From NCBI GenBank assembly GCA_976226885.1, contig OZ320317.1, positions 78,368,001-78,432,000 on the forward strand: a DNA stretch of 64,000 nt, in the 5' to 3' direction. Below, piece after piece: positions 49,237 through 57,979 of the stretch; positions within the stretch are counted from its first letter, which is position 1; the number at the start of each line of letters is the position of its first letter. A program made the position numbers and the translations under genes. The stretch is from Iphione sp. A-MEVVRFRX5. Lineage: Eukaryota. The notes below the pieces were generated by a model, which worked only from the letters and a program-made list of their open reading frames with translations, searched no databases and was not told the origin of the DNA.

Positions 49237-49242
49237 GGTGTT
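49237..49242. repeat. Left 6-bp target-site duplication GGTGTT
   Basis: Identical to 57974-57979. A 6-bp TSD is typical of Polinton retroviral-type integrases. Confidence 0.95.
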
Positions 49243-49515
49243 AGTAGTATAAAACTGCCGGTTCTGGCTCACTTTTGTTTACATTCTCCAATGCTATTTC
49301 AATGGAAAAAAGTTACCCACCTTGGTTACCCACCTTGACCTCTTTTCCAGGGAATCCCCCCCCCCTCCCCCACTGAATGACATCAGCATACACATATTGC
49401 ACCATGATAACGCAACTCCATTAGGGAATCCCCTACATGGGGAATCCCGACTGATGACATCAGCATTGATCTGTCATAGTGGTGGTCAATGATAAGAAGT
49501 ATGAGTCTGTAATCA
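49243..49515 (+). repeat. Left terminal inverted repeat
   Basis: Manual alignment with the reverse complement of 57702-57973 gives 3 substitutions plus one homopolymer indel over the first 263 bp, then 2 further mismatches in the last 10 bp. Contains an internal 13-bp tandem repeat, gttacccaccttg x2 (49312-49337). Confidence 0.96.
49350..49462. promoter_or_regulatory. Cluster of 3 NF-kB-like sites and 2 TGACATCA (ATF/Jun-type) sites in the left TIR
   Basis: GGGAATCCCC at 49350-49359 and 49424-49433, GGGGAATCCC at 49439-49448; TGACATCA at 49378-49385 and 49455-49462. Mirrored in the right TIR. Confidence 0.55.
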
Positions 49516-49532
49516 TACTTTTCCTATTTATA
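49498..49532 (-). promoter_or_regulatory. TATAAATAG box plus initiator pointing outward through the left TIR
   Basis: TATAAATAG at 49532-49524. TCATACT (YYANWYY) has its A at 49502, 30 nt downstream. Confidence 0.45.
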
Positions 49533-49634
49533 TATTGATATGAGGTTGTTCGTTTCATGTGTAGTGACACATTACTGACGATGCTTACCACGTGAAGGTC
49601 ACCTCATGTCAAGCATCTCCTAGCTAATCATCTG

Positions 49635-49760
49635 TACAGAGTGGGTCCACCTAATGTTTCCCCCTCTCATCACCTTAAACCTATACAGAGTGGTCCCACC
49701 TAATGTTTCCCTCTTACTACCTTAAATCTACACAGAGTAGGTCCAATGTATCCCCCCCCC
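49635..49760. repeat. Three ~48-bp tandem units containing TACAGAGTGGGTCCACCTAATGTTTCCCC; fourth copy at 50533-50562
   Basis: Copies start at ~49635, 49684 and 49731 (degenerate), with a near-perfect dispersed copy at 50533. Confidence 0.85.
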
Positions 49761-49874
49761 CCTCCCCTCTCACCCCATCTATGATATTCAAGAGTAGAGA
49801 AGTGTGAAGTGGTTTCTGGAATGTTGGATATTATTCTATGACAACAATGTCATGGGGTTAATTTGACATTACAT

Positions 49875-49878
<4 letters not shown>

Positions 49879-49912
<34 letters not shown>
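49879..49912. repeat. T34 homopolymer (A34 on the coding strand)
   Basis: Directly visible. Confidence 0.95.
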
Positions 49913-49916
<4 letters not shown>

Positions 49917-49977
49917 ATTTCTGCATCCTTGTCATGGATGGTAGATTTTTATCTATGACTATCGTGATTCATAGATG

Positions 49978-50330
49978 AAGTGGTTTACGGCTAAATTAAT
50001 AGCACTCCAGGGACCAGGATGGTGATGACAGTTGATAACAGACCACAGTTGCTGCTGCAATTAGTAACCACCTTAGTTTTCATGTGTGAAATGATTATTA
50101 AAGTGGTTTACGGCTAAATTAATAGCACGCCAGTGACCAGGATGATGAGAATGACAAGTGATAACTAATCACAGCTTTCTACTGTAATCAGTAAACACCT
50201 TAGTTTTCAGAAATGTAATGAACTATGCACGAATGGTTTACGGCTAAATCAATAGCCCGCCAGGGACCAGGATGATGATGACTGGTGATACTAGAGCAAA
50301 GCTTTCTACTGCAAGTTGTGATCAACTTGT
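49978..50330. repeat. Tandem array of three ~123-130-bp units (candidate structured ncRNAs)
   Basis: The conserved block TGGTTTACGGCTAAAT(T/C)AATAGC..CCAG.GACCAGGATG starts at 49981, 50104 and 50234. Units 1 and 2 end ACCTTAGTTTTCA. Confidence 0.85.
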
Positions 50331-50682
50331 TTGACACTACAAAAGTGTACTGTAAATGAGATGAAAGTTATCAAGGTAGTTTCACAGATAATTTCTCATG
50401 CATCCTTTTAGCTAGGATTTCTTGATCCACTGCATGTATTTAACTAATGGATCCATGTGACATAAATGTGATGTATATTTTAGTTATATGTACAAATGGG
50501 TTTATCTATATCTCCTCCTTATGTATTATATATACAGAGTGGGTCCACCTAATGTTTCCCCCTCACCTACTATATATATATACAGAACCAGTGTATCTTA
50601 TAATTCTTTCTATTCAAAGTGGCTCAGAGTGCTACCCATCCCCCTACCCCCCCCCCCCCCCCAACTTTACCAATTGACTTAG

Positions 50683-51759
50683 CTATGATACATCTTTCAG
50701 TTCAGATTTCCTGATCCACTGGTTAAACTTGTTGGGCCAATAGAGCCATTTCACATAGACCATTTTGTTTTGTCCTTGACCCTTCTCTTTGATTATCTTT
50801 TCCACTTTCCAAAGATCATTAGATTGTACTTTTTGAAGTTCCTGTTGATAAAATGTTCCAGTGATTTCCTCATCATAGAAATCGCTCAATCTATAGACTG
50901 GTAGACCTTTCCGTCGAAAACGCTCAGATACTTTGAATATTTCACCAGACCATCTTTCATCATATTCTCTGCTAAAAGGATGTCGTAGGTGAGTTATTCT
51001 AACATAATCCCCAACCTGAAATTTAAATCTTTGAAATTTTTTATGAGATAGATATGGCCAATACTGCTTCCACCATAAAGAGGTTTCATTTTGTTTAGTT
51101 ACATCTATGGGAGCCATACCAAGACTTCTATGATATGTGTTGTTATAACTCTGGGCTACTTCTTTAAGAATATCAATATAATGATATGTTTGTTTAAATG
51201 TGAAATAACGATATATCTTAGATTTGATAGTCTTAATAACTCTTTCTGCATAATTGGCCTTCACCTCATTCTGTGTCATAAAATGATGGATCCCATACTT
51301 TTTTAATAGTGCCTGGACTACTCTGGCTTTGAATTCTTGCCCTTTATCTGTACGGATATATTTGGGCTGTCTACCTTCAGATAATACACTATCAAAAGCT
51401 TTTGCCACTTCTGGTCCTGATTTTGTTTTGAGTGGCCTTAACCACAGATATCGAGAAAATATGTCAATGATTATGAGAATATATTTAAAACCTCTGTTAT
51501 ACTTAGACAAACGAGAGAAATCAGCCAGATCTGCATCCCATTGATCATCAATACCTGCAACCACAACCTTGCTACGAGGAAACCTCCTATTGATAGATTT
51601 GTGAAGAGTGTAAGGTTCCTGTTTGGCTAGCCAGTCTTGAATTTCTTGAAAACTGTAATTCTTACCTTCAGCATTGGCTGCTTTGTATAGTTTTGCTGGA
51701 GAGCTGAAGCTTGCAGGATGCTTTGGATTATAATATATTGACGATAAATCACGATCCAT
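50683..51759 (-). CDS. Polinton retroviral-like (rve, DDE) integrase with C-terminal chromodomain, 358 aa
   Basis: N-terminal YYNPKHPASFSS; catalytic WDADLAD, IDIFSRY, IRTDKGQEF and ANYAERVIKTIK; chromodomain WKVEKIIKEK...VYVKWLYWPNKFNQWI. ORF intact. Confidence 0.95.
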   Translation of the reverse strand: MDRDLSSIYYNPKHPASFSSPAKLYKAANAEGKNYSFQEIQDWLAKQEPYTLHKSINRRFPRSKVVVAGIDDQWDADLADFSRLSKYNRGFKYILIIIDIFSRYLWLRPLKTKSGPEVAKAFDSVLSEGRQPKYIRTDKGQEFKARVVQALLKKYGIHHFMTQNEVKANYAERVIKTIKSKIYRYFTFKQTYHYIDILKEVAQSYNNTYHRSLGMAPIDVTKQNETSLWWKQYWPYLSHKKFQRFKFQVGDYVRITHLRHPFSREYDERWSGEIFKVSERFRRKGLPVYRLSDFYDEEITGTFYQQELQKVQSNDLWKVEKIIKEKGQGQNKMVYVKWLYWPNKFNQWIRKSELKDVS

Positions 51760-51779
51760 CTCAGTCAGTGTTCAAGTGA

Positions 51780-51815
51780 AGACTGCATGCCAAACAAAAT
51801 TCAAGTCTATTTATA
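51780..51815 (-). promoter_or_regulatory. Candidate integrase core promoter overlapping the ATPase stop codon
   Basis: TATAAATAG (51815-51807) encodes Tyr-Lys-stop. GCAGTC has its A at 51784, 31 nt downstream; ATG at 51759. Confidence 0.55.
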
Positions 51816-53555
51816 CTCAGAAATTTCATCATCATCCTCATCCTCTTCATTATCATCTTCCTCTTCATTATCTTCTTCACTCTGGTCCTTCTCTTCATCA
51901 TTTTCTTCCTCTGAGTCATCAGTATCTGAATCTTCTTCAAACAGGTTTTGGAATCTAGATTTATACATTCCAACAGCTTTTCTGATAGCTCTGGACTCCT
52001 CCCATCCTTTATCCATGAGCTCATCAGCTCTATTTAGGATGTCATTTGTAGTTTTATTCCTTCTCAGATCTATAGCTTGCTTCAGAAATCTTCTGTAGAT
52101 CTTGAAGAATTGTCTCTGTTCTTTGCCCTCCTCAGCACTGTCTCGGGCTTCATCCCACATCCAGACCAATGATGCATTACCTGCATCATCTTGATCAGAT
52201 GTTCCATTCCAGTCATCTTCTATATGAAGATTTGGCAATGCCTCTATTTTAACCCTTTTTGGTTGGTTTTCCAGATCACATTTTCGAATGTGTCTATGGA
52301 GGTCAAACAAACTTCCATAGACCACTCCACATTCATCACAGGGGTAGAACTGATGTTCCTTTCCCTTTGATGTGTCCAAAACTTGTGCATGTTCCATGGT
52401 TCTTCCTGAATTTATTTCACTGTTCTGAGCGATGTGTACTCCTTGGGTGCTTGTGTGAGACTGAATAGTTGTAGAGATACCAGTGTCTTTTATACCATTT
52501 GCCAGAGCGGATTGAGGGTTTGATAACAGCCTATCTCTGGGGAGCATATTGGGTTTGTTTATGACTACTAGGTGGCCATAAGGAACAGATACTGCTGCTT
52601 CATACTTATGTAACATGTAATTTGGATCTCGGGGAAACATTTGTCTAGCTATGATATGGATCTCTTGTTTATCTGCAGGCATGTCAAACAAGATCAGGTA
52701 GTGGGAGTTACGTCTTATGGTTTTTGTACCTGGGCTGAAAAAATTTTGCATCATACAGATAACTGACAGATTCCTGTGATGACTACCCCTAGTGTATAAG
52801 TGAGTAATCCTTGGATCTTTCCCAGCTTCTGTCATCAAATCATCCAAAATCAGAAGATTATTCATTTTAGGATCAAAATATTTCTCATCTTCTAGATCAT
52901 GTGGTAGGTCTTTCACAAATTCGATGCCTTTCATAGAAGCATACAAGGGCTGCCATTGAGTATAGCACCATACCACCCTATGAGGGTATGGATAAATCCA
53001 GGCAGATAAATGTTGAAGTAAATTCCGCATCCAAGTGGTCTTCCCACTTTGCGTAGGCCCAGCAACAACCATCGTAAATGGGTGTCTGAAAGTTACCTGC
53101 TGATCTGAGCTTATTGGCTTTAGTGCTGGAGCAATTGCAGGTAGTAGGGTAGCAGTTGTTGGCATGGGTGGTAGTGGGACAGTGGGTACAGTGGTTGGTG
53201 ATGGTCGGGCAGCAGCCACAGTGGGCAGTAGTGGGGCAGTGGCTGCAGCGGGCGGTGGTGGGCCAGCTGCTGTAGCGGGTGGCGGTGGGCCAGCGGGCGG
53301 CGGCGGACCAGCGGCCGCAGCGGGCGGCGGCAGGGTAGCAACTGCAGCGGGTGTTGGTAGGGCAGTGGCCGCAGCCACAACTGGTGCTGGGTAAGCAGAG
53401 GCCTCAGGGGGTGGCATTGGGGTGCCAGTCATGACACATGGTGGCACATCATTCATAACAAAAGGCATACAGTGATATTTTGCCACATGACGATTCAGAT
53501 CATGTCTTCTACTGAAACCTGTTCCACAATCATCACAAAAGTAATTCTTACCCAT
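51807..53555 (-). CDS. Multidomain protein: C2H2 finger, Pro/Ala-rich linker, A32/FtsK-HerA-like Polinton packaging ATPase, C2HC finger, helical domain, acidic tail; 582 aa
   Basis: Walker A AGPTQSGKT, Walker B LLILDD, RGSHHRNLSV and MMQN. Fingers CDDC..H..H and CDEC..H...C. PKRVK NLS-like motif; D/E-rich C-terminus. Confidence 0.92.
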   Translation of the reverse strand: MGKNYFCDDCGTGFSRRHDLNRHVAKYHCMPFVMNDVPPCVMTGTPMPPPEASAYPAPVVAAATALPTPAAVATLPPPAAAAGPPPPAGPPPPATAAGPPPPAAATAPLLPTVAAARPSPTTVPTVPLPPMPTTATLLPAIAPALKPISSDQQVTFRHPFTMVVAGPTQSGKTTWMRNLLQHLSAWIYPYPHRVVWCYTQWQPLYASMKGIEFVKDLPHDLEDEKYFDPKMNNLLILDDLMTEAGKDPRITHLYTRGSHHRNLSVICMMQNFFSPGTKTIRRNSHYLILFDMPADKQEIHIIARQMFPRDPNYMLHKYEAAVSVPYGHLVVINKPNMLPRDRLLSNPQSALANGIKDTGISTTIQSHTSTQGVHIAQNSEINSGRTMEHAQVLDTSKGKEHQFYPCDECGVVYGSLFDLHRHIRKCDLENQPKRVKIEALPNLHIEDDWNGTSDQDDAGNASLVWMWDEARDSAEEGKEQRQFFKIYRRFLKQAIDLRRNKTTNDILNRADELMDKGWEESRAIRKAVGMYKSRFQNLFEEDSDTDDSEEENDEEKDQSEEDNEEEDDNEEDEDDDEISEYK

Positions 53556-53579
53556 GTTGACTGGTTAGCTCCTCAATGA

Positions 53580-53615
53580 CAAATGAGCTACAATCAGATT
53601 TGTAAACTATTTATA
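53580..53615 (-). promoter_or_regulatory. Candidate ATPase-gene core promoter overlapping the pPolB stop codon
   Basis: TATAAATAG (53615-53607) encodes Tyr-Lys-stop. TCATTT initiator has its A at 53584, 31 nt downstream; ATG at 53555. Confidence 0.55.
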
Positions 53616-56600
53616 GATTTTGTAATGGCCATATGCTAATGTATCACACCCATTGGTTAGAATGTATCTCTTGTCATCATAGGGTGACAGACTCCTTTTG
53701 TTCAGAGCAATAGTGTAGAGCTGGTGTTGATAACTCCTAATCTGTATCATACTATTTAGCTGTGGCTCTTGATGAAATAGAGTGTTTCTGTAATCTTCAT
53801 GAGTGATGACATTCTCAACTACACATTTGCTTATGCCTTTAGCAGTTTTCTTTTCTATGTTACCATAGAGTAGGCTGTACATTTTAGATCGTAGGCCCAC
53901 AAATTCTGATGGGGGAACCCCAGCACATTCATCCTTCATTTTACCAAGAACTTTCTTATTGCACACACTATACAGTGGGTGGTCAATTGGATAGTCAGAT
54001 GTATCAAAATGGTCAAAGTCATCATGCATGTCTTTGTAAATGTCTTCAGTCTGTACTTCATAGCAAAGGCTGTCAGTGTCAGTAAATAACAGCTTAGCCT
54101 TGTTTCCATATTTTGCTTTCATATATGAATAATGGAAACCATACATGAGAGTTTTGGAGAGATCTAAAATGCTGAAACCTACATAGATTGGCCGATTGAG
54201 TTTCAGCTTTGCCTTCCTTAAGTGAACAGCAGCTAAATCTTCATTAAATATTCTGAATGCATAGAAAGTTGCTTTAGATGATAACTTCCTCACTTTCTTC
54301 TCAGAGTTAACTAGTTTTACATCTATCCTCTTACGTAGATTCTCCATGGTTTTGCCAAAAACACTGTTGTTCATGAGTTTAAAGAAGTCTTTTTCAAACT
54401 CATTTTTGGCATGTTTACGCTTTTCTGTGTTGAAATCAATGTATGGTTTCAACCACTGGCTCTGTTTGAAAGCTAGTACACGGTGGACTTTGCTCAGAAC
54501 CATTCCAAGAGAAACATATTGCTTTAGGTTCCTGTAGTGAAGAATATATCTGGATTTAGGTAATAGGTTTGGTAACAATTTTTCAGCAGTGGCACCTCCC
54601 ATATTCAAGCTTTGGCAGTATGGAGATAACATCTCCTGAGTGATGGTTTTTAACTCAGGTGCTAAGGGGTAATCACTGTGTGAATCATGAAGATGTTCGG
54701 GATACTCCAAGTCCACCTCTAAGATATAACCTTCTTCGTTATCATCTGCTACTTCATTAACATCCAGTGGGTTAACCCAACGAAAGTCATGTGTGGGCAA
54801 TGCCTGAGACATTGCCCAACCATACAGGTTGTTAGCATCCAAATATGCAATATATTTCGAAGGTGTAGAAGGGTCATAATCAGCTAAGTAGGGATTATTA
54901 GCTTTCGAATATCTATTGCTTATAGTTGATATACCACCCCGCAATCCTTTCTCTATGAAAAGATGCATGTCCACATCAGTTAGGAGTTCCAACTTTTGAC
55001 CTGTCATTTTAAGACAGGCCTGCCAAGCAAGACCAGGAGATGTGTAGAAATGTGCTGGGTCTAGTTCATAATAATTCAAACAAATTTCCCTAAAGTGTTC
55101 AAAAACATCAGCCAGCAGGAGGACATCTGTGGCCATGTAGAGGTCATGGTATTCACCAAATGATTGGATGTCAAAGGCATCCCATACTTGTTGGGCATGT
55201 TTATAGTCATCTATAGTGACATTTTGTCCAGTCAAACTGTTATAAAATGACTCAGCAGTTGGAAGCCTTGTTTCTTGGAAGACAGCTGGACCAGTAACGT
55301 AATCATAGGGATAGATGCCCTTTCTGACCAAGAGCTCAATTTCTGTAAAATGCTGTTTAAGATGACAGAACTGTGCTAGGCCTTCTTTAGCCAAATTTGC
55401 TGCTAGTTTGTCTAAAGAGGTTGACAGAAACTGGAAGGAATCTATGAAATCCATAGAACCCATGGAAAAAGATACATACTTTTCCATATTGTTTGGAATG
55501 CATTTGATTTCTTTGTTCACTTTCCCAATAGCCTGCATGATGATGTGTGAGTCATATCCCCTGAGGTTATGAAAAATCACAGGAATTCTACCCTGTAACC
55601 TAAAGTTTACATTGCAGTTGTTATGAGCAGCACCACGGAACCTTCCTGTAATATGGCAGTGGTCCCTAACCCTGTCATCCCCAAGGATCTCATGACAGAT
55701 ATGGCAATGTCTAGCCTGATTGAAAGCCCTGAACTCTTCAACTGTCATTTGAAGTGGTTTGGGATTTTTATAGATCAAATCAATTCTCTCTTGTTCTTTG
55801 AGCATGTGTTCTATGAACTTGTCCGCAACATCAGGGCCTCGGTACACTACAAGATCTCTGGATAGGTCATCATTCAACCCAACCACTTTGTATGCAAAGC
55901 CAGATGGAATGTGTTGCACCAGTTTGTGGGTGTAAGACTGAGATGGATCTGGGATACATGTATGTACCTTGGCTGCAAAGCACTCGAAGTCAGCGTAAAT
56001 CACAAAAGGGACCTTCAGCTGCTTAGACACATCCTTAAAAAATAGCCATTTGTCTTTTTCAGTTGGGAGTTCAATTCTCTGGGGACCATGGATCTTACAA
56101 TAGGGAAGGTGGTCATGTAGTAAAGACTCTTTTGTGAAGCCATGCAAACAGTATGGACAAAAGAAGTGACGATGTGTGTTCGACTTTTGATCATTGAGCA
56201 GGCGATTCAAGTCCTTAATCCAACAATAATGTTGTTTCCTACCATCAGACAGAATTAATAAATTGATGTGTTTGTCAAATCTCTCCTGAGTGACATGAAT
56301 GGGTAGGATCACACCATGCTCATATCCAAAAACATTTATGGAAATTTTGTTTTGTTTTTCAAATCGAGGGACATCAGTCACTTTCAGGGGATAGTTAAGC
56401 CCTGTCATATCAACTGTATCCATATATTCAATGTACTTGCTAACCCGGTTATGATTCTTTTTAACTGGATAAAGAGCTGCCAAGACCGACCAGAGAAAAC
56501 ACTTTTTGTCTCTGTTCTGTACATTGACAATAGCATGTTTAGTCCTCAGTTTAATAGGCAAAGGAATGTAACTAGACCCTTTCAATGGCTGATAGTGAGC

Positions 56601-56831
56601 CATGTGCACTCTCAGCTGTATAACATGATTTAATTTCCAATTGCTTCCCTGCCTCTGGTACTCACTAAAGGATTCATGTATTTTCTTAACTGATTCCTGG
56701 AAACCTTCATTTATATCCTCTGGCTTTAGTGCAATCTGACATTTCCCTCGAAAATGTGGCTCAGCAGTTTCTACTCCATCTTTTTTTTTCTTTTTGAAAT
56801 TGCACTTGAACAGACAAGTACCATTTGACAC
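53607..56831 (-). CDS. Protein-primed family B DNA polymerase (pPolB), main body
   Basis: ExoI YADFE, ExoII FHNLRGYD, ExoIII YMATDV; Pol motifs YLDANNLYG, KLMNNSVFGK, FTDTDS. Inserted endonuclease VII-like domain (CHIC...DHCH...RGAAHNNCN). OTU-like NRDKKCFLWS...HYCWIK. Lacks its own ATG; the true N-terminus is in the adjacent frame. Confidence 0.96.
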   Translation of the reverse strand: MSNGTCLFKCNFKKKKKDGVETAEPHFRGKCQIALKPEDINEGFQESVKKIHESFSEYQRQGSNWKLNHVIQLRVHMAHYQPLKGSSYIPLPIKLRTKHAIVNVQNRDKKCFLWSVLAALYPVKKNHNRVSKYIEYMDTVDMTGLNYPLKVTDVPRFEKQNKISINVFGYEHGVILPIHVTQERFDKHINLLILSDGRKQHYCWIKDLNRLLNDQKSNTHRHFFCPYCLHGFTKESLLHDHLPYCKIHGPQRIELPTEKDKWLFFKDVSKQLKVPFVIYADFECFAAKVHTCIPDPSQSYTHKLVQHIPSGFAYKVVGLNDDLSRDLVVYRGPDVADKFIEHMLKEQERIDLIYKNPKPLQMTVEEFRAFNQARHCHICHEILGDDRVRDHCHITGRFRGAAHNNCNVNFRLQGRIPVIFHNLRGYDSHIIMQAIGKVNKEIKCIPNNMEKYVSFSMGSMDFIDSFQFLSTSLDKLAANLAKEGLAQFCHLKQHFTEIELLVRKGIYPYDYVTGPAVFQETRLPTAESFYNSLTGQNVTIDDYKHAQQVWDAFDIQSFGEYHDLYMATDVLLLADVFEHFREICLNYYELDPAHFYTSPGLAWQACLKMTGQKLELLTDVDMHLFIEKGLRGGISTISNRYSKANNPYLADYDPSTPSKYIAYLDANNLYGWAMSQALPTHDFRWVNPLDVNEVADDNEEGYILEVDLEYPEHLHDSHSDYPLAPELKTITQEMLSPYCQSLNMGGATAEKLLPNLLPKSRYILHYRNLKQYVSLGMVLSKVHRVLAFKQSQWLKPYIDFNTEKRKHAKNEFEKDFFKLMNNSVFGKTMENLRKRIDVKLVNSEKKVRKLSSKATFYAFRIFNEDLAAVHLRKAKLKLNRPIYVGFSILDLSKTLMYGFHYSYMKAKYGNKAKLLFTDTDSLCYEVQTEDIYKDMHDDFDHFDTSDYPIDHPLYSVCNKKVLGKMKDECAGVPPSEFVGLRSKMYSLLYGNIEKKTAKGISKCVVENVITHEDYRNTLFHQEPQLNSMIQIRSYQHQLYTIALNKRSLSPYDDKRYILTNGCDTLAYGHYKIYK

Positions 56832-57243
56832 TACCCTTCTGAACTTCTTGTTTTAATCTCCCTATTACTTTCTGCTGCTTTTTACCTAAAAAGACCATGG
56901 GGTCTTTTTCTGCCCCTGCCTTCATAGTTGCAGTCTTTAAGGAATTCTTAACAGCCCCCTCCTCAAAAAATGTATCACAATCAGTCCCACGACCAGTCTG
57001 TTGATGTGCTTCAACATTCTCCCTACTTCTAGTATTTGCCTTTTTTCCATCAGTTGTATTATCATGTTGTGGATTTTCATGAATTTTCCTGTGTCGGTTC
57101 AATACATCCTTCCTCTGGAATTCTTTATTGCAATTCACACACTTGTACATCTTTCCATTCCCATGGCTGAGCCTCATATGACGACTAAGACCTGACCTAT
57201 GGTTAAAAGTCTTTTTACAGTGACCACATTCAAAGTTTGCCAT
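56761..57243 (-). CDS. N-terminal part of pPolB (two C2H2 fingers plus start of the terminal-protein region), separated from the body by a 1-nt frameshift in A9 at 56781-56789
   Basis: MANFECGHCKKTF...HMRLSH and YKCVNCNKEF...HRKIH. It ends VKWYLSVQVQFQKEKK, which joins DGVETAEPHFRGK if the run is A8, giving a 1211-aa fusion. Likely start ATG at 57243. Confidence 0.85.
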   Translation of the reverse strand: MANFECGHCKKTFNHRSGLSRHMRLSHGNGKMYKCVNCNKEFQRKDVLNRHRKIHENPQHDNTTDGKKANTRSRENVEAHQQTGRGTDCDTFFEEGAVKNSLKTATMKAGAEKDPMVFLGKKQQKVIGRLKQEVQKGSVKWYLSVQVQFQKEKKRWSRNC

Positions 57244-57440
57244 GATATAATATACCAATGAAAAGCCTCTGTGAAAATGCAACTCACTTACCTAGGGAGA
57301 TGTGCCTTGTTCAGCCCAACAGCAACTACTAAGGTAGACTGCTAGAAGATATCTCCTTAAATATATATTGCACCACCTTTTGTCATCTTCATAACTGTAG
57401 GCTTGACTATCCCCCTTCCCCTCTGTAACAAATGGGTCAT

Positions 57441-57684
57441 GTTTATCTGGCCATAACTGTGGTTCTATTTATAGTACATACTCATGCCTACTACCATCGC
57501 AAAGCTCTCGCCGAGAGCTTTTGAATGGTGTATAGAACATGTACCTAGCGTTATTCAGTCCCCCTCGCCATCTGTTAACACTGTGTTGGGTTTATCTGGT
57601 TATATCAGTTGTTCTATTTACAGTACACACTCATGCCCACTACCATTGCGACGCTCTCGTCGAGAGCTTTCCGATGGTGTATAG
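57441..57684 (-). promoter_or_regulatory. Two 95-bp direct repeats, each with a hairpin and a TATA-like box, upstream of pPolB
   Basis: Copies at 57441-57535 and 57590-57684. Palindromes AAAGCTCTC-gcc-GAGAGCTTT and GCTCTC-gtc-GAGAGC, each flanked by ACCAT/ATGGT. TATAAATAG at 57473-57465; TGTAAATAG in copy 2. Confidence 0.7.
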
Positions 57685-57701
57685 CACTTATCTCTAGGTT
57701 G

Positions 57702-57973
57702 TGATTACACGCTCATACTTCTTATCATTGACCACCACTGTGACAGATCAATGCTGATGTCATCAGTCGGGATTCCCCATGCAGGGGATTCCCTAATGGA
57801 GTTGCGTTATCATGGTGCAATATGTGTATGCTGATGTCATTCAGTGGGGGAGGGGGGGGGATTCCCTGGAAAAGAGGTCAAGGTGGGTAACCAAGGTGGG
57901 TAACTTTTCTCCATTGAAATAGCATTGGAGAATGTAAACAAAAGTGAGCCAGAACCGGCAGTTTTATACTACT
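57702..57973 (-). repeat. Right terminal inverted repeat
   Basis: Reverse complement of 49243-49515. kB-like sites at 57769-57778, 57784-57793 and 57857-57866. Confidence 0.96.
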
Positions 57974-57979
57974 GGTGTT
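57974..57979. repeat. Right 6-bp target-site duplication GGTGTT
   Basis: Identical to 49237-49242. Confidence 0.95.

Follow-up and report, generated by a model that had tools for sequence, protein, structure and literature searches.

The packaging ATPase of a Polinton is usually treated as one module with the capsid, kept or lost jointly with it. A small element in the genome of Iphione sp. carries the ATPase and no capsid gene, and this raises the question of what the motor is for. A capsid-less lineage with a selected motor means that Polinton particles exist and are being pirated, or else that the motor does some unrecognised work in the cell. Either answer would be new, and the same genome holds young copies of both small and capsid-encoding families in which to look for it. 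In what follows, the window is the whole 64-kb stretch of DNA that was analysed.

Structure of the element

The element occupies positions 49243-57973 of the window (8,731 bp) and is flanked on each side by the 6-bp target site duplication (TSD) GGTGTT. Its terminal inverted repeats (TIRs) are 97.8% identical over 273 bp, with five mismatches and one gap column. All three genes are on the minus strand, in the order pPolB (the protein-primed DNA polymerase B), ATPase and integrase, separated by gaps of 51 and 47 bp. The features are listed below; those without a strand are marked as such.

49237..49242, no strand: left TSD, GGTGTT (from the sequence)
49243..49515, no strand: TIR, 273 bp, beginning AGTAGT (from the sequence)
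49627..50564, no strand: subterminal non-coding region with ~49-bp repeats, a poly-T run and a ~127-bp repeat present 2.6 times
50683..51759, minus: open frame of 358 aa for an RVE integrase with chromodomain (Pfam rve at E 1.2e-13; Chromo under the cut-off)
51808..51815, minus: putative TATAAATA box that overlaps the ATPase stop, 56 nt upstream of the integrase start
51807..53555, minus: A32/FtsK-HerA packaging-type ATPase, 582 aa, open (Pfam Pox_A32 and zf-C2H2)
53608..53615, minus: putative TATAAATA box, 60 nt upstream of the ATPase start
53607..57243, minus: pPolB, Beta class by sequence, with two N-terminal C2H2 fingers
57410..57697, no strand: a pair of 149-bp repeats with a hairpin inside each and a putative TATAAATA box in one
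57702..57973, no strand: TIR, second end (from the sequence)
57974..57979, no strand: right TSD, GGTGTT (from the sequence)

Between the left TIR and the integrase (49516-50682) the longest stop-to-stop frame is 77 aa, which leaves no room for a capsid-module gene, and the region 57283-57701 holds one 66-aa ATG ORF. An earlier note, made from the letters of this DNA, had described an intact TSD, TIRs about 98% identical, intact integrase and ATPase frames, gaps of 47-51 bp and no sizeable further ORF, and on each of these points the measurements agree. It had also placed the same TATA box before each gene. The sequence TATAAATAG is indeed common to the three genes, and its distance upstream of the start is 56 nt for the integrase and 60 nt for the ATPase; for pPolB, however, it is 230 nt, and the box is not conserved across all subfamilies. 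An Rfam search of the element matched no family, and no tRNA was found in the window.

The upstream TIR differs from the upstream TIR of a sister copy at two positions and from its own partner at five, so TIR identity is no clean clock. The left flank of the element is single-copy in the assembly, and thus there is no empty site to compare.

Copies, families and age

The searched genome comprises 1.18 Gb in 89 contigs. Searches with the integrase, polymerase and ATPase agreed in the loci that they hit and in how the hits fell into tiers, and the counts are lower bounds. At least 37 three-gene copies could be analysed as whole elements, 13 in family A, to which the window copy belongs, and 24 in family B; three decayed A-type loci without paired ends were excluded. 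The two families are ~75% identical at the protein level. Copies of the same structure sit at different sites: a 6-bp TSD was found in 32 of the 37, and all 32 are different. All three frames are open in 16 copies (5/13 in family A, 11/24 in family B). Copies are 7.7-11.0 kb long, except for one palindromic copy of 6.0 kb and one that was incompletely retrieved. An exact genome search with the terminal 25 bp gave 36 ends, the paired ones 7.7-9.9 kb apart.

The closest sister of the window copy is 98.7% identical to it, and several family-A copies are 99.3-99.7% identical. Such near-identity indicates recent insertion. The lineage is old and has still transposed recently; it is not a one-off deletion. 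The simplest reading of the sequences would be that capsid loss came before families A and B diverged and that the motor was kept from then on.

The polymerase

The exonuclease and polymerase motifs that the earlier note had seen are present in the pPolB translation and are kept in 33-36 of the 37 copies. The gene is not one open frame in the window copy, however. A frame change at a homopolymer run near 56780-56790 of the assembled copy splits it into a 160-aa zinc-finger ORF and a 1,081-codon frame, so the earlier note's description of this copy as complete needs qualifying. In sister copies pPolB is a single open frame of ~1,210 aa. The window copy would depend on the enzyme of a sister copy.

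Programmed frameshifting was considered and rejected, as the frame changes in this interval in just 2 of 12 scorable family-A copies, the window copy included.

The polymerase is homologous to those of capsid-encoding elements. The PF03175 profile does not match a full-length copy of the lineage's pPolB, while the polymerase of the resident capsid-encoding family C scores 1.8e-47. Local identity to the polymerases of families D-F is ~25%, and family C is unmatched. On these comparisons the enzyme is assigned to the Beta class of Starrett, which (PMC8502044) comprises polymerases that are not of the PF03175 type and are less than 30% identical to it. For the N-terminal OTU-like domain of that class, what was counted is a short cysteine motif, present in 34 of the 37 pPolB copies.

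Between the window's subfamily and subfamily A2, dS is 1.3-1.6 for pPolB and 0.20-0.29 for integrase and ATPase. This difference indicates that the window's subfamily has exchanged its polymerase.

Absence of the capsid module

Polinton hallmarks found in the element are a protein-primed polymerase B, an RVE integrase, TIRs with a 6-bp TSD and an A32/FtsK-like ATPase. A double jelly-roll major capsid gene is absent from 37/37 copies; the check for group-2 capsids used one unverified sequence. For a penton gene and for an adenain-like maturation protease there is neither room nor a match in the elements.

Evidence for these absences was provided by a six-frame search with profiles of capsid, penton, protease and two accessory genes, built from capsid-encoding loci. 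None of these profiles had a match in any of the 37 elements. The same profiles recovered decayed capsid and penton in both of two chimeric controls (X1 and X2, described below), and the protease profile detects proteases in foreign loci. Another 33 stretches, lying beside unpaired or lone ends or representing partial copies, gave no capsid, penton or protease match, and three of them matched an accessory-gene profile. When 1,693 pooled ORFs of other Polinton loci were compared with the elements, one zinc finger alone matched outside the three genes.

The suggestion in the earlier note of a streamlined lineage, as opposed to a random deletion, is thus borne out by 37 copies in two families with distinct TSDs, by the lack of any capsid remnant and by the purifying selection described in the next section. 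The cases that it had named as contrary (an element present only once, sister copies that share the TIRs but carry a capsid gene, an assembly collapse) were absent on test.

The ATPase: fold and selection

The ATPase consists of a C2H2 finger, a Pro/Ala linker, the A32/FtsK-HerA ATPase domain, a second finger, a helical domain and an acidic tail. In the AlphaFold model the domain has a pLDDT of ~90. The best match of the model is the packaging NTPase B204 of STIV2 (Foldseek E 2.8e-7; VIA: Z 15.2, rmsd 3.2, 178 aligned), and among viral models it is matched by A32/IVa2 proteins. Other FtsK/HerA translocases come within 1-2 Z units of the B204 match, so the predicted fold by itself does not single out packaging. 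The C-terminal helical domain had no usable match in Atlas.

Walker A is kept in 36 of the 37 ATPase copies, Walker B in 35 and the arginine finger in 34. Pairwise dN/dS of the ATPase domain is 0.03-0.23 where measurable (10 sequences); for family A against family B the ratio is 0.04-0.07, at a dS of 2.3-4.6 or at saturation. For integrase and polymerase, dN/dS between subfamilies is 0.06-0.20. These ratios indicate that all three genes are under purifying selection.

Relatives in other genomes

Trees were built for each gene from subsets of the matches, by a quick IQ-TREE run for the ATPase and by FastTree for the integrase and polymerase. In all three, families A and B fall in one clade with proteins of other assemblies (support 100). 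Within the polymerase tree A and B group separately, each with different foreign proteins, a pattern compatible with host jumps as well as with an old split. Among named relatives, the next are mostly mollusc proteins, with pPolB 56-63% identical. Proteins with the same succession of finger, ATPase, finger, helical and acidic parts occur in Mytilus, Pecten and Mya, and two such mollusc gene models continue into integrase sequence, which suggests the same gene order as in the window element. In IMG/VR no relative of the ATPase was found, and those of the integrase and polymerase are only distant (at most 52%).

The ATPase architecture also occurs in L232, a cassette with capsid and protease, and the capsid cassettes L131-L133 encode finger-ATPases with a different C-terminus. 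Thus the architecture is an inheritance from capsid-encoding ancestors and no satellite innovation. L131-L133, which come from other samples, contain the closest capsid-linked ATPases: they share 51-54% identity in the ATPase domain and fall in a 21-row clade (SH-aLRT 90 in the quick tree). Two foreign contigs, L147 and L231, hold TIR-bounded elements with this ATPase and without polymerase, integrase or capsid gene. The order pPolB-ATPase-integrase is itself the first part of many capsid-encoding relatives, which points to a lineage that began by gene loss.

Capsid-encoding Polintons in the same genome

In the same genome, young Polinton families that encode a capsid are abundant, so a potential helper is present. 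There are 97 scored capsid matches, mostly without an internal stop. The family C capsid (432 aa) is predicted to be a double jelly roll, with PBCV-1 VP54 as the best match of the model (E 1e-16).

On sequence identity the resident capsid families are not the parents of the small elements: identity is 40-50% for the integrase and ~30-43% for the ATPase, and the polymerase is ~25% identical or unmatched except in one family, where it reaches 39-47%. The two kinds of element have nevertheless exchanged DNA. Two chimeras, X1 (8.2 kb, TSD CCCTGT) and X2 (7.2 kb, TSD CCAAAA), join a B-type ATPase to family C DNA. In both the ATPase is intact, capsid and penton are broken, and pPolB and integrase are missing; one also retains an intact PC4-like gene. 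The two ATPase domains are separated by 16 synonymous and 4 non-synonymous changes, a ratio of 0.07, and in the decayed capsid region X1 and X2 are 91.6% identical. A duplicated gene in elements of 2.5-2.8 kb that have A-type ends resembles a virion-module gene of family F, the one between penton and capsid, with 50% identity over 56 aligned residues.

A ~201-bp array is found at loci of small family B, of the X chimeras and of family C. It showed no sign of being a genome-wide satellite among 40 scored of 257 candidates, not all of them assigned. A coding repeat was ruled out, as the period varies from 201 to 213 bp.

Some points weigh against the satellite reading given below. Family A, the window's own, lacks the array that links B to family C. 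Recombination with helpers is a sign that both resided in one nucleus, not of packaging. Finally, the ATPase genes of X1 and X2 might have differed slightly, and been under selection, before each chimera captured its own.

What the motor may be for

The reading preferred here, with confidence near the midpoint of the scale, is that the lineage is a self-replicating satellite that loads its own DNA into the capsids of resident full-size Polintons. Polinton pPolB copies excised linear DNA from the terminal repeats, and the RVE integrase inserts DNA. In the same way, pPolB would replicate the excised linear element from its terminal repeats and the integrase would insert the copy, a step that the fresh 6-bp TSDs fit. 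The ATPase would dock on a capsid borrowed from a full-size Polinton, its zinc fingers might bias packaging toward the element's own DNA, and in such particles the element could pass from cell to cell or from host to host. Of the two mechanisms that the earlier note had named, a transposon that lost its virion genes and a satellite with its own motor, the balance leans to the satellite because the ATPase is selected and because chimeras that keep it exist. That elements without enzymes of their own retain the motor is most easily explained if it benefits the DNA that encodes it, for instance by packaging in borrowed capsids. The fit to resident capsids is not assured, since the ATPase of the small elements is only ~30-43% identical to the resident ones.

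Somewhat less probable, though well within reach, is a pure self-synthesising transposon that never enters a particle and re-uses the ATPase inside the cell, for instance in a DNA-translocating role that aids the replication of the linear intermediate or its handling. That capsid-less Polintons can be pure transposons is accepted (PMC4405056), and the FtsK/HerA fold includes translocases that do not package. The lineage encodes both polymerase and integrase itself, and among the families sampled in this genome none is a close capsid-bearing parent; selection on the ATPase is compatible with any essential role. Yet nine elements without a capsid gene had also lost ATPase and protease, according to Krupovic 2014, so the motor is not required for transposition as such; X1 and X2 retain a selected ATPase with no polymerase to assist; and the ATPase domain shows no sign of having diverged from packaging relatives in the L131-L133 cassettes. 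An unlikely variant ties the lineage, as satellite or partner segment, to a cognate virus that is absent here in integrated form or was not sampled; the capsid would come from an exogenous or unfound relative with a zinc-finger ATPase of the same type and not from the resident families C-G. The variant would agree with the origin of the nearest capsid-linked ATPases in other samples and with the distance of the resident ones, and the genome searches scored best candidates only; but the chimeras and the ~201-bp array link the lineage to family C of this genome, and no cognate capsid-bearing element was seen among 151 ATPase and 77 pPolB matches, with 10 outlier loci examined. The gene order, as in the first part of capsid-encoding relatives, is also what an internal deletion of a full Polinton could leave. 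A one-off event of this kind, or an assembly artefact, has a negligible chance given 37 copies spread over many contigs, 32 of them with TSDs that all differ, synonymous divergence between A and B near saturation, exact termini paired at 7.7-9.9 kb, and no capsid gene in 20 stretches beside unpaired or lone termini or stray matches.

If the small elements do borrow capsids, a selected motor that works on capsids supplied in trans would indirectly prove the production of virions by animal Polintons. Such virions have never been observed in animals, according to PMC8097293, PMC10748475 and 10.64898/2026.06.19.733378. More tentatively than for the packaging itself, the elements might be grouped as satellites of animal Polintons, comprising three-gene capsid pirates in several marine-invertebrate genomes and smaller motor-only elements.

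Comparison with known systems

The lineage shares pPolB, RVE integrase, A32-like ATPase, AGTAG- termini, TIRs and a 6-bp TSD with Polintons/Mavericks (Polintoviricetes, adintoviruses) of the Beta type, and its integrase and ATPase are related to those of group-1 capsid-encoding Polintons. It differs from capsid-encoding Polintons in having no capsid, penton or protease, in having exactly three genes, and in a length of mostly 7.7-11 kb as against 15-20 kb. Screens restricted to elements of 10 kb or more with a capsid gene, as described in PMC11131425, would miss such elements.

Capsid-less Polintons are already known. Those in PMC4405056 and PMC4028283 (Table S1) have lost the capsid and kept pPolB and integrase, as in the lineage; the rule described there is that ATPase and capsid are lost together, whereas the lineage keeps the ATPase. 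Two entries of that table, P_Pd1.1 (Platynereis, 10,777 bp) and P_Gi1.2 (Glomus, 11,019 bp), are scored as lacking capsid, penton and protease and having the ATPase. They are single entries, listed without comment in the part available and likened to the lineage by presence pattern alone; single members of the lineage may thus already be catalogued. A literature search found no description of a three-gene ATPase-keeping Polinton lineage or of an animal Polinton satellite, and in the literature found, as far as its accessible text goes, a lineage of this kind with a selected ATPase appears undescribed.

Phage satellites (SaPIs/PICIs) have their own replication and integration genes, no capsid and a helper's particle, and on the satellite reading the lineage is alike. 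SaPIs encode their own packaging specificity subunit. They and the PICIs differ from the lineage in genes and hosts, and the lineage retains the whole motor. Transpovirons, as described in PMC11161782, are helper-dependent, as the lineage would be if it is a satellite, but they have a polymerase-helicase fusion and are parasites of giant viruses.

Exchange of the polymerase gene

Judged by sequence, the polymerase of the window element's subfamily is a module swapped between three-gene lineages. When this subfamily is compared with subfamily A2, dS is 1.3-1.6 for the polymerase (window 53607-57243) and 0.2-0.3 for the integrase and ATPase. The element also carries subterminal repeats.

Window 57410-57697, pair of 149-bp repeats, each containing a hairpin

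On the + strand, the first repeat folds better than shuffled sequences (z -2.9); on the - strand, it is not clearly better (z -1.8).

Chimeric elements

An ATPase of the type of capsid-less family B is also found within DNA of family C, a capsid-encoding family of the same genome.

L083+L084:5160-13359 and L085+L086:6064-13222 (coordinates within opened loci), X1 and X2, two chimeric elements with TIRs and TSD at their ends
L055+L056+L128:6017-21938, family C element, 15.9 kb, TSD GCTACT
L053:2490-3680, L128 (family C end), X1 and X2, diverged ~201-bp tandem array

In X1 and X2 the B-type zinc-finger ATPase is intact and under selection, and the capsid and penton genes of the surrounding family C DNA are broken. 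Neither chimera contains a polymerase or an integrase. Their bodies are alike but their TIRs differ. The ~201-bp array is common to families B and C, in opposite orientation.

Family C carries a gene with a PC4 domain, and its polymerase is of the Alpha class; a protease profile search of its 15.9-kb element gave no protease. Capsid families D/E (L059-L068) have additional genes. Going by motifs only, these look like genes for leucine-rich membrane proteins and for an apoptosis-inhibitor domain.

L065:3397-6096, ORF of 899 aa with a signal peptide, similar to an envelope glycoprotein

Relatives on unplaced contigs and in foreign DNA

L147:1-4221 and L231:3163-8546, TIR-bounded elements of 4.2 and 5.4 kb in foreign DNA
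L077-L082 (small contigs C34, C54, C58), AT-rich Polinton-like elements on unplaced contigs 16-31 kb long

Both foreign elements encode an ATPase of the window element's zinc-finger type and lack genes for polymerase, integrase and capsid. A set of 28 loci (L231-L258) filed under bacterial genome assemblies contains Polinton genes, in many cases together with capsid cassettes; this is probably host DNA carried into bacterial bins. The AT-rich elements, with a related polymerase and a distant ATPase, may come from another organism or be extrachromosomal.

Derivatives and small elements

Two derivatives, L094 (6.0 kb) and L215, are palindromic, both arms repeating integrase and ATPase sequence. 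L094 has 2.4-kb TIRs of 99.9% identity and a TSD. Family-A ends bound smaller elements.

L032:933-3465, L222:7002-9706 and L043:314-3092, elements of 2.5-2.8 kb

The open ORF of L032 and L222 is a tandem pair of gene copies with a basic tail. The duplicated gene resembles the one that family F, a capsid-encoding family, has between its penton and capsid genes.
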